Positions 23,879 to 38,573 of a DNA stretch of 38,573 nt are shown here, in pieces. The stretch lies in IMG/VR virus record IMGVR_UViG_2706794695_000013; one strand, 5' to 3'. Source of the DNA: a virus (Duplodnaviria > Heunggongvirae > Uroviricota > Caudoviricetes). A program made the translations under genes and the position numbers. The notes beneath the pieces are model-generated. The model was given only the letters and a program-made list of their open reading frames with translations, did not search any database and had not been told where the DNA came from. Within the stretch, counting starts at the first letter, position 1. Each line of letters opens with the position of its first letter.

Positions 23879-24931
23879 TTATTTCCCCACCAGCTCGTTT
23901 ATCTCTTTCACTGTCTGATTAAACCGCTCTGACTCAAGCTCAACACCTAAGGCCCGACGCCCCAGCGCCATTGCTGCTTTTATTGTGGAACCGGATCCCA
24001 TAAAAAAATCAGCAACCAGATCACCTGGTCGACTACTGGCATTGATTATTTGCCTGAGCATATCCGCCGGTTTCTCACACGGATGTTTCCCCGGGTAGAA
24101 CTGAACGGGTTTATGCATCCAGACATCGGTATAAGGCACGGAGACTGATACGGAGAAATAGCGCCGGAGAGATTTAAACTCATCCAGCAATTCAGAATAT
24201 TTACGATTCAGTGAATCATAAGATGCCACCAGCTGGTGGTGTGGTTGTTCCAGTTGTTGTTCCTGAAACTTCTCTGCCGCTATACGGGAAAACAGTGCCT
24301 GTAACTTCCGATAGTCAGCCTCATTCGGCAACTGCCACTGACTGGCACCAAACCAGTGGGAAACCATATTTTTCTTACCTGTGGCTTCGGCAATTTGTTT
24401 TGCCGTTATACCCAGTTCGGCACGAGCATCCCTGAAATACGATATCAGCGGTGCCATTATGTGCTGTTTGAGTTCCCTTTCTTTTGCCGCATAGCCGTCA
24501 CTTTTGCCGCGATATGGCCCCTGGTAATGTTCAGCAAACAGAACGCGCTCTGTGGCAGGAAAATATGCGCGCAGACTTTCTTTATTACACCCATTCCAAC
24601 GTCCGGACGGCTTCGCCCAGATGATATGGTTAAGCACGTTGAAACGTTCACGCATCATGATCTCAATATCAGATGCCAGGCGATGCCCACAGAACAGGTA
24701 AAGGCTTCCGGCAGGTTTCAACACCCGCCAGAACTGGGCCAGACAGTGGTCCAGCCACTTAAGGTAATCTTCGTCCCCTTTCCACTGATTGTCCCAACCG
24801 TTGGGTTTCACCTTGAAGTAAGGCGGATCGGTAACAATCAGGTCAATGGAATCATCAGGCAGGGACTGAATAAAATGCAGGCAATCAGCGTTGATTAAAT
24901 CAACACTGTTTATTTTTACAGTATTTTTCAT
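23879..24931 (-). CDS. DNA methyltransferase, beta-class N6-adenine/N4-cytosine type (orphan; no cognate nuclease seen)
   Basis: 350 aa; N-terminal DPPY motif (IVTDPPYF) and C-terminal AdoMet-binding FFMGSGST; directly upstream of the holin. Confidence 0.85.
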
Positions 24932-25285: not shown

Positions 25286-25406
25286 GTCTTTTTCCCTTCT
25301 GGTTAACATGACATACCAATAACTCTTGTCTAAAAAGCCAGCAAGATAAAAAGTCAGTATTCACGACCACCAGCGTGTTTACTGTACTGCACCAAGTTTA
25401 CGGGTA

Positions 25407-25431
25407 CAAAAAACCCGCTCAGTGGCGGGTT
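25407..25431 (-). terminator. Terminator-like hairpin, copy 1 of a duplicated element
   Basis: aaaaaacccgc tcagtg gcgggtt; near-identical to the copy at 26085-26111. Confidence 0.5.
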
Positions 25432-25508
25432 GCTATCACAGCTATATATTTACTTATTATGCCGTTACTAACATTTATCTTCGACATATAATCGAAAACA
25501 AGGTTTGC

Positions 25509-25934
25509 TTAAAACTCTGCTTTCATTTTATCCGGGAATTTTTTATTTGCAGCATAATAACTACCAAGTACATAAGCGTTCATTTGCTGCTCTACATCAA
25601 CCCGACATGCCGCACTAGAACAAGCTCCACTGATAAGCCCAAAAGAACTCCCTTTAGCAGAGAGATCAGCTTTGATTTCCTCTACAGTGTTTTTCCCCAT
25701 AGCAACTACACACCCTGTCACAATATATCTAGCTTTCACATCATCCATGCTAAGGATAGTAGTTTTCGCAATTTTGCTGTATCCATCATTTTTATAAACA
25801 TCCATGGCAAACGCACGGCAATCTGTATAATACGGACTTGCTTTAACTTGCGAATACTCAGGTAATTTCATACCTGCACAACCAACTAAACAAAAACCTA
25901 TCGCTGCTATTAATACCTTTTTCATTACAGTCAT
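25509..25934 (-). CDS. Lipoprotein of unknown function (AT-rich moron)
   Basis: Signal peptide with lipobox (MKKVLIAAIGFCLVGC); local GC content clearly below the flanking phage genes. Confidence 0.7.
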   Translation of the reverse strand: MTVMKKVLIAAIGFCLVGCAGMKLPEYSQVKASPYYTDCRAFAMDVYKNDGYSKIAKTTILSMDDVKARYIVTGCVVAMGKNTVEEIKADLSAKGSSFGLISGACSSAACRVDVEQQMNAYVLGSYYAANKKFPDKMKAEF

Positions 25935-26084
25935 AACCTAGAAGCATCATTGAAACTAATTTATTAAATAACCATCGAGTTTCTGGAATACAGACGTTAA
26001 CCATCTCTCCAAAATCTAAAAGATAATAAGAAAAAATGTTTAACGCACCAATCCATTTCATAGTTTCATGAGACATCAGGCACA

Positions 26085-26111
26085 AAAAACCCGCTCAGCG
26101 GCGGGTTTTTG
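26085..26111 (-). terminator. Bidirectional rho-independent terminator, candidate tR-prime downstream of Q
   Basis: aaaaaacccgc tcagcg gcgggttttt: GC stem flanked by A-run and T-run. Confidence 0.6.
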
Positions 26112-26153
26112 ACATTTACCAACGGTAGACATACAAGGCCCATCGTTGAGAAA

Positions 26154-26182
26154 ATCTTATCCATATTTTTTGAAAAATGCAA
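26154..26182 (-). promoter_or_regulatory. Candidate late promoter (PR-prime-like) between Q and the terminator
   Basis: On the minus strand TTGCAT, 17-nt spacer, TAAGAT; position is as expected for a lambdoid late promoter/qut region. Confidence 0.25.
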
Positions 26183-26213
26183 GTATCACGTCGACATCTT
26201 CGGCGAAAATTAT

Positions 26214-26966
26214 CTATCTTGTCACTTTTCTCAATTGCGATTCAGCATACGCTTCTTCCTGCCAGCACTTTGTAACCAGTTTATTAATAACGTCTGCATA
26301 TCCTTTGTACCACTGATAATCCGTCAGGTCCGGTACCAGTTTCTGGACATGATGCCGCGCCAGTGTGGTTGGTAAACGGCTAAACCGGTTGCCATTGCAA
26401 CGCCCACAAATCTTATAAACAGGCACACCATGAAGCCGGGTTCTTTTTTCATCCAGGACAATACCTTTACCCTTACACCCTCTGCACGCTGTGCTGACTT
26501 CTCCCTTACCATGGCAATGCTGACATAGTTCCTTCACCCACTCTTCCTTGATAACAGATTCCCCGCTTCTGGAGTGTTTCACCACTTCGCGCAATACATT
26601 ATGAAATCCAGTACCAGCACAATGCTCACAGCGAGCCTTACTTGCCGCAGACCTGGAATAATCAGCAAAGGCAAAATTCACAAGGTAAGGGATGATCTGT
26701 AACCGGGTTTCTTCACTCAATTTGTTCAATGTCGGGTTATCCAGTGCCATCGCGTAATTGAGCAGACCTTCAATCGCAAATTGAGGATCCTGAACACCAA
26801 CTTTTGCCAGGAATAAGGCAAACCCAAGCGGTGCTTTCGACTGCACCATCCCCTGCGCAGCCATCACATCCGTAATCGTTAAACCACCTGAGCCTGTCGC
26901 CGGTGCGTCATCGCTCAATTTTGGAGATTTTGGGGAGTAATATTTTGGTAAGGCTTCAAGGTTCAT
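26214..26966 (-). CDS. Late-gene antiterminator Q-like protein with DnaJ-type Cys-rich zinc finger
   Basis: From ATG 26966 (GGAG SD): MNLEALPKYYSPKSPK...; four CxxCxGxG-type repeats (CEHCAGTG, CQHCHGKG, CRGCKGKG, CGRCNGNR); last gene of the nin-type region before the late promoter and lysis genes. Confidence 0.55.
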   Translation of the reverse strand: MNLEALPKYYSPKSPKLSDDAPATGSGGLTITDVMAAQGMVQSKAPLGFALFLAKVGVQDPQFAIEGLLNYAMALDNPTLNKLSEETRLQIIPYLVNFAFADYSRSAASKARCEHCAGTGFHNVLREVVKHSRSGESVIKEEWVKELCQHCHGKGEVSTACRGCKGKGIVLDEKRTRLHGVPVYKICGRCNGNRFSRLPTTLARHHVQKLVPDLTDYQWYKGYADVINKLVTKCWQEEAYAESQLRKVTR

Positions 26967-26979
26967 GCTCGTTCTCCAC

Positions 26980-27975
26980 TTACGCCAATACGCCAATTGC
27001 CAGCGCACGATCGATAAAACGAAATATCAGCTCCAGCTGGGAGCCATACTTCTCTTCAAATGCCACGGTATCCGCATGCAGCTCGTCGTGATGCTTTCTG
27101 CACAAAGGCAACACAAAGAGGTCATGCGCTTTTGTACCCATTCCACCCTGACCGTGGCCTATCAGGTGGTGGGGATCATCAGCAGGCTTTCCACAACATG
27201 CACACGGCTGTGTCTTAACCCAGCGCGTGTACTTTTCATTAACCCAGCGGCGGCGTTTTGGGCGTAACATAAAAGACTCCGGCGACTCCGGATCCACTTT
27301 CAGCGCCAGCACCTTTTTTGCCTTATCCTGGATGATGCTGGTGGCAGGAACCGAAGGCACAAGGTCACTTTCCCGGGTGACAGACGGCACAACAGGCTTT
27401 GGTAATCTCAGTGCCTTACGGGCTGCACTTTCCGGTAAGGCATCCGCCAGGTCATTACGAATCAGCCACCAGCACAGTTCCGGCATTGTCACAACGTGAC
27501 TATCATCAAAACCGAGATCCCGACGCACAACAGACAACACCCAGCGGGCACAGTTATCCGTTGCCATTGATTCCAGCCGTTCCGTGAACTGATCGCGCAG
27601 CTGGTTATCGCAGTGCCAGCACAGACGGATTGCGCCCGGAGCGTGTCGCATTGTGGTCATGTTCTCGCTGTGCCAGTCGGAATGAGGCCACTGGCAGCCT
27701 TTTTCACGAAGTAACCAGCTTTCAAGACATTCCACGCCACCAGCACGACGGATCACTGCCTCATTGCGGAACACGGCCCGAACGGCAGGATCATCCGCCA
27801 GCGGTTGTGATGCCGCCGGAACGGCACCACTGGCGAAAGATGAATAACGTTCCGGCTCAGGCTCCAGCAGAACACGCCCCTGCATAAACAGGGGCATCAG
27901 CTCTGAACCTGGCCTGAACAATACGATCCCCATACGCGGGGCAATTTCAGGGGTCAGTAGTGCTCTCACGGTCAC
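26980..27975 (-). CDS. DUF968-type nin-region protein with C-terminal HNH-like Cys/His motif
   Basis: 331 aa; C-terminus PCACCGKPADDPHHLIGHG...CRKHHDELH. Confidence 0.55.
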   Translation of the reverse strand: MTVRALLTPEIAPRMGIVLFRPGSELMPLFMQGRVLLEPEPERYSSFASGAVPAASQPLADDPAVRAVFRNEAVIRRAGGVECLESWLLREKGCQWPHSDWHSENMTTMRHAPGAIRLCWHCDNQLRDQFTERLESMATDNCARWVLSVVRRDLGFDDSHVVTMPELCWWLIRNDLADALPESAARKALRLPKPVVPSVTRESDLVPSVPATSIIQDKAKKVLALKVDPESPESFMLRPKRRRWVNEKYTRWVKTQPCACCGKPADDPHHLIGHGQGGMGTKAHDLFVLPLCRKHHDELHADTVAFEEKYGSQLELIFRFIDRALAIGVLA

Positions 27976-29518: not shown

Positions 29519-30168
29519 GCCGCCATCTCCCTGACCAGTTTTTCCGCCTGCTGGCGAACCTGCGCCAGAAACGCCTCACCACATGCCTCAAGTTCATCGC
29601 GCCCGATGTAGCTGATTGCCGGTCCCTTCCAGGTCTTGTCGAAAACAGCAATAGCACCAGCGAAGAAAGCGCCTGTCGGCACCTGCTTCTCGTCCTTCGG
29701 GATAAACCAGGCAGGCAGTTCAAAACCAATACGCCCGCGAATAAAAGCAATATGATCTGCATCTTCCGGCCACCACACTTCGCTGGTGGCAGCTTTGATC
29801 AGGAAAACATAGCGTCCGCCCTTATCACGCATGGCACTGGCATGTTTCATGATGTAACGCATGCCGGTGATGTATTGCCCTTCATGCTGACTGGCGCGGC
29901 TGTACGGGGGATTACCAAAGGCAGCACCTTTAAGCTCCGCAAGACGTTCAGACCAGTCATGCGCCAGCGCGTTGTCTTCCGCAGTGTAATAAGCGGCACA
30001 TTTGGCGTTATCACCATCAGTGAACAGATCCAGAACAAACGGGCCAAACAGGGTGTTAATTCCCCAGAAAATGTTATCCGGCGTGCGCCACTGATCGCCC
30101 ACTTCCTTCAGTTCATGGGCTGGTTTGTTCCGCAGCTCCACCAGCGCCTGGCAATATTTATTACTCAT
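29515..30168 (-). CDS. Phage Dam-type N6-adenine DNA methyltransferase
   Basis: From ATG 30168: MSNKYCQALVEL...; catalytic NPPY motif (AFGNPPYSRA). Confidence 0.8.
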   Translation of the reverse strand: MSNKYCQALVELRNKPAHELKEVGDQWRTPDNIFWGINTLFGPFVLDLFTDGDNAKCAAYYTAEDNALAHDWSERLAELKGAAFGNPPYSRASQHEGQYITGMRYIMKHASAMRDKGGRYVFLIKAATSEVWWPEDADHIAFIRGRIGFELPAWFIPKDEKQVPTGAFFAGAIAVFDKTWKGPAISYIGRDELEACGEAFLAQVRQQAEKLVREMAA

Positions 30169-30662
30169 TAAGCCCCCACGTAATTCCCTGACAGATACCA
30201 CTCTTCACCCGATGCAGCGCGCTTGCTGCTTTTCCGTAAGCACCGCTCACGACGCGCCAGAAAATTGTTTCGTTCTGGCTGGGAGTGGCTTTCACGGAAT
30301 GCCGCCATCCACACCGTTGCAGCACGACGGTATAAGCCCCTGGACTCCAGTTCTTCCGCCTGGCGGGTCAGGCACAAAATCACCCGGGGATCGTTAGTGC
30401 CGACATAGAAATTGCGCACAGGTCTGGTTTCACGAACTGGTTGTGGTTCCGGCTCCTGCGCTCTCTCAGTCAGGCGTGGGAAATGTCTGCGTGTATCTCC
30501 TTCATAACGGTGAGCCACACGCCCACTCTGACGTAACTTGCTTGCTGACTGCAGAACGCGCTGCCGTGAGTAACCTGCAAAAGCATCCGCAATGTCTCCG
30601 GAAGTACACCCCGGATGGGCTTCAATGAATTTCTGAACTTCATTCAAAAGACTCATGATCAC
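30168..30662 (-). CDS. PerC-family (Pch-like) transcriptional regulator with N-terminal extension
   Basis: C-terminal ELESRGLYRRAATVWMAAF fits the PerC signature L-E-x2-G-L-W/Y-R-R-A-A-x2-W; track start is GTG, ATG at about 30656. Confidence 0.5.
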   Translation of the reverse strand: MIMSLLNEVQKFIEAHPGCTSGDIADAFAGYSRQRVLQSASKLRQSGRVAHRYEGDTRRHFPRLTERAQEPEPQPVRETRPVRNFYVGTNDPRVILCLTRQAEELESRGLYRRAATVWMAAFRESHSQPERNNFLARRERCLRKSSKRAASGEEWYLSGNYVGA

Positions 30663-37584: not shown

Positions 37585-38004
37585 TTACTCATCATCAATA
37601 GATGATACGCAATATTTATTTTTAAATTTAAGGTTCTTTGGCGTAACTTCATCAGATATATCAAAACCGTCCAGAATTCTATTGAATGTAGCTTCTGGCA
37701 TATCATCATGAACGGAAATCTCACCCGATCGCTGCTTTCTAACCATGTTATCCACTCGCCAAATTATAGCTTCAGCGTAAACAACATAACTTGGATGCTT
37801 GATAAAGCGATGATCACCAGAATTCAAGACGCAAGACGGATCGTGGGGGACACCATCCTTGATACTAGAAATATTAACAACTAAAACACAATAACAATCG
37901 TTAACGGGGTAATAAACAGGATCATTACAAATCACATGAAGATGATTGCATGGCCCAGTTGGGGCAAGCACAGTTCCTTTCCTGTATGGCTGATAATCCG
38001 TCAT
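37585..38004 (-). CDS. Hypothetical protein, 139 aa, translationally coupled to the Panacea-like gene (candidate toxin)
   Basis: ATGA overlap with the upstream stop at 38001-38004; Cys/His-containing MTDYQPYRKGTVLAPTGPCNHLHVICNDP...; no recognisable family. Confidence 0.55.
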   Translation of the reverse strand: MTDYQPYRKGTVLAPTGPCNHLHVICNDPVYYPVNDCYCVLVVNISSIKDGVPHDPSCVLNSGDHRFIKHPSYVVYAEAIIWRVDNMVRKQRSGEISVHDDMPEATFNRILDGFDISDEVTPKNLKFKNKYCVSSIDDE

Positions 38005-38573
38005 GATAATTGCAAAGAAAATTCCTTAAGTTTCTGAGATTCTTCCATTTTGCCAATTATACGATTAGCCTCATCCTCGCTTTTACCCTCACTGATCAGC
38101 ATTTCTTTCAGGTCTATAGGCTTACGAGAATTGCCAGGATTGTGCCACTCTGGACAAACGCTTTCTAAATGCGTCATGTTTGCGAGATCAAATCGGTTCA
38201 TATGCCCATACAGAGAATAGATTTCATCTAAAATCCGGATATCTGCACGGCTCAACTCATCAAAGACCTCGTCTGCATCCATTTCCCTCGGATCTGAACG
38301 CAACAACACATCATGCCCGTTCGTCTCTATCAGGTTGTACCAGTAGTCACCAATACCTTCAGCCTTACCACGAATCAAGTTCAGCGTATTCGACATGACT
38401 GGACCAAATTTCATAGAGTAAAGGCTATCTTCGCCGATCATCCTGCCATGCTTCAAAATCGACTTGCGGTTAGACAGATAGAGCAGCTTCATCAATTTCA
38501 GATATGCCATGCGCCCACCTCGCTTAAGAAGTAGGTATGCAGCCATTTGAGCTACTTTTTCTTCGCAAAACAT
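38001..38573 (-). CDS. Panacea-domain (DUF4065, SocA/GepA-like) protein, candidate antitoxin; N-terminus may extend beyond the window
   Basis: VAQMAAYLLLKRGGRMAYLKLMKLLYLSNRK...SMKFGPVMSNTLNLI fits the Panacea pattern (T-x-LKL-x-KLLY ... F-x-A-x2-GPV); ORF begins at the last base of the window. Confidence 0.6.
   Translation of the reverse strand: MFCEEKVAQMAAYLLLKRGGRMAYLKLMKLLYLSNRKSILKHGRMIGEDSLYSMKFGPVMSNTLNLIRGKAEGIGDYWYNLIETNGHDVLLRSDPREMDADEVFDELSRADIRILDEIYSLYGHMNRFDLANMTHLESVCPEWHNPGNSRKPIDLKEMLISEGKSEDEANRIIGKMEESQKLKEFSLQLS

Follow-up and report, generated by a model that had tools for sequence, protein, structure and literature searches.

IMG/VR virus record IMGVR_UViG_2706794695_000013 (38,573 nucleotides; this whole stretch is called the window) encodes on its minus strand a 250-residue protein, here called the Q protein, followed by a promoter-like element and a hairpin. 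We conclude, with a probability of roughly 0.9, that the gene is the late-gene antiterminator of an Escherichia coli lambdoid prophage, that it belongs to the Q-lambda family, and that it is accompanied by its own promoter, pause signal, and terminator (Table 1). The element is already known: the gene is annotated in thousands of genomes, RefSeq labels the same coding sequence on identical DNA in E. coli chromosomes "ydfT: antitermination protein (Q)," the K-12 orthologue is YdfT/QuuQ, the protein is a Q-lambda family member, and its long zinc arm is shared with Q of phage phi80.

The Q protein belongs to the Q-lambda family

In the Pfam scan, the Q protein matched PF03589, "Antitermination protein Q," at 180.8 bits (E = 5e-54; cut-off, 26.7), while PF06530 (Q21) and PF06323 (Q82) gave no match at E ≤ 0.1. 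Of the three unrelated Q families, PF03589 represents Q-lambda (PMC9388147). The hidden Markov model search thus bore out the original prediction, made from the letters alone, of a Q-like antiterminator. That prediction had also named two findings that would speak against it; the protein falls in PF03589 rather than in a non-antiterminator family, and the annotation of the same prophage in strain PK8217 shows no further antiterminator, a negative that covers the annotation and not a scan of every open reading frame (ORF) of the window against Q profiles. The PK8217 prophage is identical to the window across the Q region, with coordinates shifted by ∼43 nucleotides (nt) in the structural genes.

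Other comparisons led to the same family. The profile phrog_127, "anti-termination protein Q-like," covers the full-length protein (1e-108). A phmmer search of PDB sequences matched lambda Q (7ubm_Q, 2.9e-37) in two blocks, query residues 1-120 and 160-250. The AlphaFold2 (AF2) model has a mean predicted local distance difference test (pLDDT) score of 75, with residues 1-29 disordered, as in free lambda Q. When this model was compared with the PDB by Foldseek at E ≤ 0.001, all 8 matches were lambda Q chains, with template modeling (TM) scores of 0.39-0.72; one of them was 7ubn_Q (E = 7e-13, TM 0.58/0.68).

Lambda Q, for which structures are available (4MO1, 7UBJ-7UBN), and the Q protein are collinear from end to end except for one insert, with 42% identity over the aligned columns. 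Both proteins share the N-terminal torus segment, a body of four helices, the C-terminal portion of the arm, and an arm tip of the form T-x-L-x-G; the N-terminal segment is the best conserved and, in lambda Q, refolds with NusA into a torus at the RNA-exit channel (PMC9388147). Among the polymerase-contacting residues of lambda Q, SAA 110-112, L202, and T206 are kept. Lambda residues 110-112 and 117, which contact the β′ zinc-binding domain, correspond to the flank of the first zinc knuckle of the Q protein, SAA...R. Lambda E134, a contact to sigma region 4, is replaced by R177; in lambda Q, the change E134K raises DNA affinity (PMC9388147).

The four zinc motifs lie in an expanded arm

The original prediction had described four tandem CxxCxGxG-like motifs of DnaJ type. 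The motifs are real: three are perfect and the fourth, CxxCxGxR, is near-perfect, and the DnaJ_CXXCXGXG profile (PF00684) scored 36.4 bits over residues 148-193 in the Pfam scan (cut-off, 32.7). In 25 homologues of 65-97% identity, all 8 cysteines and the motif glycines G118, G120, G153, G155, G166, G168, and G192 are invariant; judged from these sequences, the conservation of the four zinc motifs is not chance. The label "DnaJ-type" holds for the motifs and fails in its chaperone-like sense, since the stretch is an enlarged lambda Q zinc-ribbon arm and not a fused chaperone domain.

The anatomy of the arm is directly visible in the alignment. Lambda Q (207 residues) has one zinc ribbon, in an arm of 39 residues (114-152) with knuckles C118/C121 and C144/C147. 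The arm of the Q protein has ∼86 residues, and an insert of ∼47 residues adds two knuckles and a β-hairpin relative to lambda Q. The N-terminal flank of knuckle 1 (SAA...R-C) matches the lambda flank before its first knuckle (A), and the segment from knuckle 3 to knuckle 4 matches the lambda segment from A to the second knuckle (B): both span 26 residues and their sequences correspond, the arm tip (TRLHG versus TELWG) included. Thus, there are four DnaJ-like motifs because a lambda-type arm with a single zinc ribbon took in an insert with two extra knuckles.

The insert is not peculiar to the window. In a search of 1.8 billion representative proteins, long forms of 231-280 residues always had four cysteine pairs, with knuckle 3 of the form CxxC or CxC and a linker of ∼6 to ∼60 residues between knuckles 1 and 2, whereas short forms (lambda, P22) had two knuckles. 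Nearly all homologues among the matches listed were of the long-arm form, and the 253-position PHROG profile spans the 250-residue query end to end; by this survey, the long-arm form seems more widespread than the short-arm form. Since phi80 gp17 is a long form, the long arm is a known natural variant of a known family and not a chaperone fusion.

We give hardly any credence to the alternative that the gene encodes a DnaJ-like or anti-TRAP-like zinc-finger protein, whose role would be that of a chaperone, redox protein, or protein inhibitor and not that of an antiterminator. PF00684 does score above its cut-off, and there are weak matches to DnaJ and anti-TRAP models, but the DnaJ-like stretch makes up only ∼80 of the 250 residues and sits inside a full-length lambda Q scaffold, with no J-domain match in the Pfam scan and without a substrate-binding domain. 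The DnaJ equivalog model TIGR02349 reached 29.8 bits (cut-off, 377), and NF058604 reached 22.7 (cut-off, 65); moreover, lambda Q itself has two such knuckles. The likeness to the DnaJ cysteine-rich domain (PF00684), anti-TRAP, and BSD2 consists in the fourfold CxxCxGxG knuckles. Values in the zinc-topology comparison were 4.9 for DnaJA2, 4.4 for BSD2, 3.4 for anti-TRAP, and 3.1 for the DnaJ cysteine-rich domain 1EXK. The knuckles of the Q protein are spaced by 35, 13, and 26 residues, unlike those of the E. coli DnaJ cysteine-rich domain, where the spacings are 17, 22, and 14. Relatives score below the PF00684 cut-off (phi80 Q, 24.0 bits; ST104 gp23, 26.9 bits).

We predict that the Q protein binds two zinc ions. 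The alignment with anti-TRAP profiles falls on knuckles 2 and 3, which would fit a DnaJ-like pairing of knuckle 1 with 4 and 2 with 3. On the other hand, two tandem ribbons, 1 with 2 and 3 with 4, would agree with the closed hairpin that separates knuckle 1 from knuckle 2 and with the likeness to lambda of the stretch joining knuckles 3 and 4. In the literature searched, nothing was found on zinc pairing by the eight cysteines or on the role or characterization of the second zinc module in long-arm Q proteins, and, to our knowledge, all structural work on the Q-lambda family concerns the short-arm lambda protein.

TABLE 1 Positions of the Q gene, its parts, and the elements downstream, in window coordinates
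Feature	Positions	Strand	Details
Q antiterminator gene	26214..26966	minus	250 residues; orthologue of E. coli K-12 ydfT/quuQ; Q-lambda family, long-arm form
Residues 1-44	26835..26966	minus	Counterpart of the lambda torus (nozzle) segment; 57% identity; G39 kept
Q protein body			Counterpart of the lambda four-helix body; ∼35% identity
Expanded zinc arm, residues ∼109-195	26382..26642	minus	Four cysteine-pair knuckles and a long β-hairpin (121-131 / 137-147)
Knuckle 1	26607..26630	minus	CEHCAGTG (C113, C116)
Knuckle 2	26502..26525	minus	CQHCHGKG (C148, C151)
Knuckle 3	26463..26486	minus	CRGCKGKG (C161, C164); CxC in many relatives, including phi80 Q
Knuckle 4	26385..26408	minus	CGRCNGNR (C187, C190); counterpart of lambda Q C144/C147
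Residues 161-195			Counterpart of the C-terminal part of the lambda arm; 46% identity
PR′-like late promoter	26154..26182	minus	−35 TTGCAT (26182-26177); spacer of 17 nt; −10 TAAGAT (26159-26154)
Presumed Q-binding element	26160..26176	minus	TTTTCAAAAAATATGGA, in the spacer
Predicted start and pause element	26139..26150	minus	CTCAACGATGGG; start A26147; sigma-dependent pause element AACGAT (26147-26142)
Predicted leader RNA	26084..26147	minus	∼63 nt, from predicted start and terminator; counterpart of lambda 6S RNA; fold −20.3 kcal/mol
tR′-like intrinsic terminator	26084..26110	minus	Stem of 10 bp (26110-26085), loop of 6 nt, U6 tract to 26084
Second, near-identical terminator	25405..25431	minus	Would have to be read through by Q-modified polymerase before the late genes
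72-residue ORF, phrog_37626	25858..26076	minus	In the inserted cassette
141-residue ORF, phrog_4748	25509..25934	minus	In the inserted cassette; lipoprotein-type N terminus MKKVLIAAIGFCLVGCAG

A probable late promoter, a pause element, and a terminator follow Q

The Q reading frame opens with ATG at 26966, with GGAG ahead of it, and closes with TAG at 26216-26214 (minus strand). At the level of sequence, the segment beyond the stop codon has the PR′/qut/tR′ layout that had been proposed, and its homology to lambda PR′ and to the annotated late promoters of phi80 and P22 is direct. In an ungapped comparison, CTCAACGATGGG proved to be an exact 12-mer of lambda PR′ that spans +1 and the pause element; it occurs once in the window, with 0.17 matches expected when one mismatch is allowed. 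Both CTCAACGATGGG and the promoter geometry are the same in lambda and the window. Between the −10 hexamer and the predicted start lie six nucleotides, TTTCTC, followed by AACGATGGG, which begins at 26147 (minus strand).

From the −10 hexamer to the start of the terminator stem is 44 nt, in agreement with the distance of 40-60 nt originally given for the hairpin, which folds at −13.9 kcal/mol (z = −3.0). The very short transcript that the prediction had remarked on is likewise expected here (∼63 nt, versus 194 nt for the lambda leader, 6S RNA). As an anomaly it did not hold up: P22 and phi80 are already annotated with short leaders, so a short leader is normal and the 194-nt 6S RNA of lambda is the exception. 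A search of Rfam at E ≤ 1 assigned the leader to no family at threshold and returned only matches below threshold to families with hairpins of the terminator type (RNAI and the Trp and Leu leaders).

The 5′ end of the leader (AACG, 4-5 nt) could form base pairs with CGUU at +24 to +27. Similar pairing is seen in lambda and P22 (AACGA/UCGUU) and in phi80, and there are possible compensatory changes in ST648 (AAAG/CUUU), ST104, and YeP1. We do not claim this 5′ hairpin (window 26121-26147), as a helix at least as long appeared in 0.4-84% of single-sequence shuffles.

The cassette is conserved across enterobacterial prophages

To compare the cassette, we used 27 loci, namely 26 homologous loci and the window, with phi80 (long-arm) and lambda (short-arm) as annotated references. 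A long-arm Q, 37-98% identical, is present in 24 of the compared loci, and the long-arm loci come from Escherichia, Enterobacter, Mangrovibacter, Kosakonia, Phytobacter, Atlantibacter, Scandinavium, Buttiauxella, and Entomohabitans. The layout is constant and recurs in all 25 other homologous loci, which represent ∼10 genera: a TTG-type −35, a spacer of ∼17 nt that ends in TGG, a −10 of the form TA..(A/T)T, 6 nt, AAYGATGGG, and a terminator, the U tract of which ends at ∼+47 to +72. Conservation of promoter, pause element, and terminator is thus directly observed. Stem sequences of the terminator differ between prophages, with pairing kept. The promoter is also conserved in a separate alignment of nine of the long-arm loci. 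The spacer varies by clade (TTCAAAAA; TTCGGAAAA, as in phi80; GTGGGGAAAAA), which would be expected if it holds a phage-specific Q-binding element.

The cassette also marks a boundary. Among the matches listed for the end of Q plus the intergenic segment, 1212 are E. coli records, and most of these matches stop at query positions 243-258. The U tract ends at query position 247, so homology between E. coli prophages stops just past the terminator. Beyond it, the cargo varies between prophages and may be cspF/cspB, tRNAs, holins, methylases, or the cassette found in the window.

The hairpin at 26110-26085 might be read in another way, as a structure that mainly ends the early or the Q transcript or marks a boundary of inserted cargo, beside a fortuitous promoter-like element. 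Runs of A and U flank it symmetrically, so that it could terminate in either direction; it is also duplicated as the flank of an inserted cassette, and the promoter hexamers taken alone are no better than chance. Against this, the segment from the Q stop codon to the hairpin is kept position by position across genera (−35, 17-nt spacer, −10, AACGATGGG) and shows homology to PR′ of lambda as well as to the late promoters annotated in phi80 and P22. We consider this reading very improbable as a replacement for a tR′-like terminator, and the two roles are not mutually exclusive.

Two individual loci deserve mention. In E. coli ECGI0523 (CP178306.1), the module is decaying, with tblastn identity of 37%, an AACCAT pause element, and a weakened terminator stem, which indicates that some copies of the cassette are relics. 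A record labeled "MAG: Veillonella parvula" (JAGZPX010000007.1) encodes a Q 95% identical to that of E. coli, and its downstream sequence is that of an Escherichia ruysiae locus; the Veillonella label is probably a binning error in a metagenome-assembled genome.

Observations that weigh against the assignment

Several observations weigh against reading the gene and its cassette as a working late switch of the lambda type. The two flap-tip contacts C53 and H56 of lambda Q have not been kept in the Q protein. By consensus, the promoter hexamers are weak (∼7/12 matches), and a generic promoter scan called 4 sites in the region, with 3.9 expected, none of them at the PR′-like promoter. The generic terminator scan also missed the tR′-like terminator and caught its near-identical twin at 25431-25412. 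As neither the promoter nor the first terminator was called, the argument for them rests on homology and folding. No functional study of the Q protein or of K-12 YdfT/QuuQ was found in the searchable literature.

A further point concerns the sequence beside the pause element. In lambda, P22, and HK97, AACGAT is preceded at a distance of 1 bp by TTGACT, a −35-like hexamer that in lambda is the site for Q-repositioned sigma region 4. The corresponding position in the window (26148-26153) reads TTTTCT, with 4/6 matches and without the G and the A, so that lambda-type loading may differ here in the step that involves sigma region 4. TTGACT beside the pause element was found in none of the long-arm loci examined; it belongs to lambda PR′ and is not a trait of the Q protein family. 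A link between arm length and TTGACT was considered and set aside: the short-arm examples (lambda, P22, and HK97) form one lineage with nearly the same Q and PR′, an effective sample of one, so the contrast is a lead and not a correlation.

Finally, among named genes the closest is K-12 ydfT, which belongs to a cryptic prophage, so some copies of the gene are relics. The gene and cassette of the window might likewise be an inactive relic that no longer switches, like those of the cryptic prophage Qin of K-12; decaying related loci, such as the one with AACCAT and a weak terminator, and truncated proteins with three motifs point in the same direction. We judge this quite improbable. The ORF is intact with all family-invariant residues present, the late operon of the window appears to be complete, with genes for holin, lysozyme, a spanin-like protein, terminase, portal, capsid, and tail, and Q proteins 98.8-99.2% identical to it are found in records deposited as phages.

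Genomic context and an inserted cassette

The order of genes on the minus strand agrees with a late antiterminator: rusA, KilA-N, DUF968 (ydfU-like), Q, the inserted cassette, a 67-residue ORF, a DNA methyltransferase, holin, lysozyme, and a spanin-like gene. According to the annotation of the PK8217 prophage, terminase, portal, capsid, and tail genes follow the lysis genes, and the late genes run leftwards. Q thus sits at the end of the early-right operon and directly upstream of the late operon.

The DUF968/HNH-like gene (26980-27969, minus strand; PF06147, 3.5e-81; PF16784, 4e-6) ends 14 nt before the Q start. In all E. coli loci retrieved, a DUF968 gene is the upstream neighbor of this type of Q, and in Yersinia phage YeP1, too, Q adjoins a gene of the YdfU family. 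The methyltransferase gene (350 residues; 23879-24931, minus strand) lies between the Q cassette and the holin gene; Stx2c phages are alike in this, with stx after it. Annotation of the identical prophage also shows, on the minus strand, a Panacea-domain gene at the window edge (38001-38573) and a PerC-family regulator in the early region (30168-30662).

The two terminator copies form a direct repeat of 29 nt, 93% identical (25403-25431 and 26079-26107, minus strand), and between them lies a cassette of 676 bp (window 25403-26107, minus strand), also carried by Stx2c-converting phages. Strain C11 has a single terminator, and immediately after it comes the sequence that in the window stands behind the second copy. 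From this arrangement, the cassette looks like an inserted moron.

A model for Q loading and read-through

The steps of the model and the zinc stoichiometry are what we infer by analogy with lambda Q and from the features of the window. The helix-turn-helix body and the zinc arm would bind the Q-binding element in the spacer of a constitutive late promoter. RNA polymerase would start at about A26147 and pause at about +16, where sigma-70 would rebind the −10-like AACGAT on the non-template strand. Q would then dock on the paused complex and, with NusA, its N-terminal 44 residues would form a ring at the RNA-exit channel through which the RNA threads. The modified polymerase, unable to form terminator hairpins, would pass the terminator at +38 to +63 and its duplicate 676 nt further on and would continue into the DNA methyltransferase, lysis, and morphogenesis genes. 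Without Q, only the ∼63-nt RNA would be made. According to the lambda Q structures, an RNA of 15-16 nt should already pass through the torus (PMC9388147); loading would then precede a terminator at ∼+40, and the short leader is compatible with the mechanism.

In lambda, the arm contacts positions 11-13 of the Q-binding element, the β′ zinc-binding domain, and, through its tip (133-137), sigma region 4. The second zinc module of the long arm could replace the lambda dependence on docking of sigma region 4 at TTGACT, or it could make Q loading sensitive to zinc or redox state. That this module alters the loading of Q on the paused polymerase and, separately, that the constitutive leader of ∼63 nt is a prophage-encoded regulatory RNA like StxS is a proposal that we hold to be rather unlikely. 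StxS, the short RNA from PR′ to tR′ of Stx1 and Stx2a phages, is an Hfq-binding regulatory RNA, and similar short RNAs are made by phi80, P22, 21, and 82 (PMC7547250). If the proposal is true, altered loading or the leader RNA would bear on Stx2c expression, because Stx2c phages use the same cassette.

Comparison with known systems

As a finding, the Q gene of the window adds little: it is an annotated gene with a named K-12 orthologue in a structurally solved family. YdfT/QuuQ (b1559, "putative antitermination protein Q"), from the Qin cryptic prophage, is 94% identical over 250 residues and has the same four motifs. Qin also has the same upstream ydfU (DUF968) and the same downstream promoter, pause element, leader, and terminator as the window. 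The two part beyond this cassette, which in Qin is followed by cspF/cspB and a decayed late region and in the window by the lipoprotein cassette and an apparently complete late operon.

Phage phi80 provides the annotated long-arm counterpart. Its gp17, a late transcription antitermination protein according to its annotation, has 269 residues, is 38% identical, and has four cysteine pairs and the PF03589 domain. The phi80 record marks a pR′ with a −35 of TTGCAT, as in the window, and a −10; it places a Q site within the spacer and a terminator a short way downstream, at ∼+46 to +74 as estimated from the annotated −10 and terminator. Differences from the window are the CxC form of knuckle 3, a longer linker between knuckles 1 and 2, the pause element AACGCT, and the spacer TTCGCGGAAAAACTGGA, for which a difference is expected if recognition is phage specific. 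P22 has a short-arm Q (gp23), and its record annotates P late, a qut site, the 5′ nucleotide of the RNA, and tR′ at +31 to +59.

Among phages, the same Q occurs in the Stx2c-converting phages (e.g., LC727877), in which it is 98.8% identical; with phage SKA5 included, the range is 98.8-99.2%. These phages have the same promoter, leader, and terminator with few single-base differences, and their 141-residue, 75-residue, and methyltransferase ORFs come next downstream in the same order. In the Stx2c phage, stx A and B (RIP, E = 1.5e-29; SLT_beta, E = 1.1e-46) are located 2.6 kb beyond the cassette on its downstream side, whereas the window is without stx and the methyltransferase is followed by the lysis genes. 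Because the cassette of Q, PR′, and tR′ drives the late operon of Stx2c phages, anything learned about it applies to the expression of Shiga toxin 2c.

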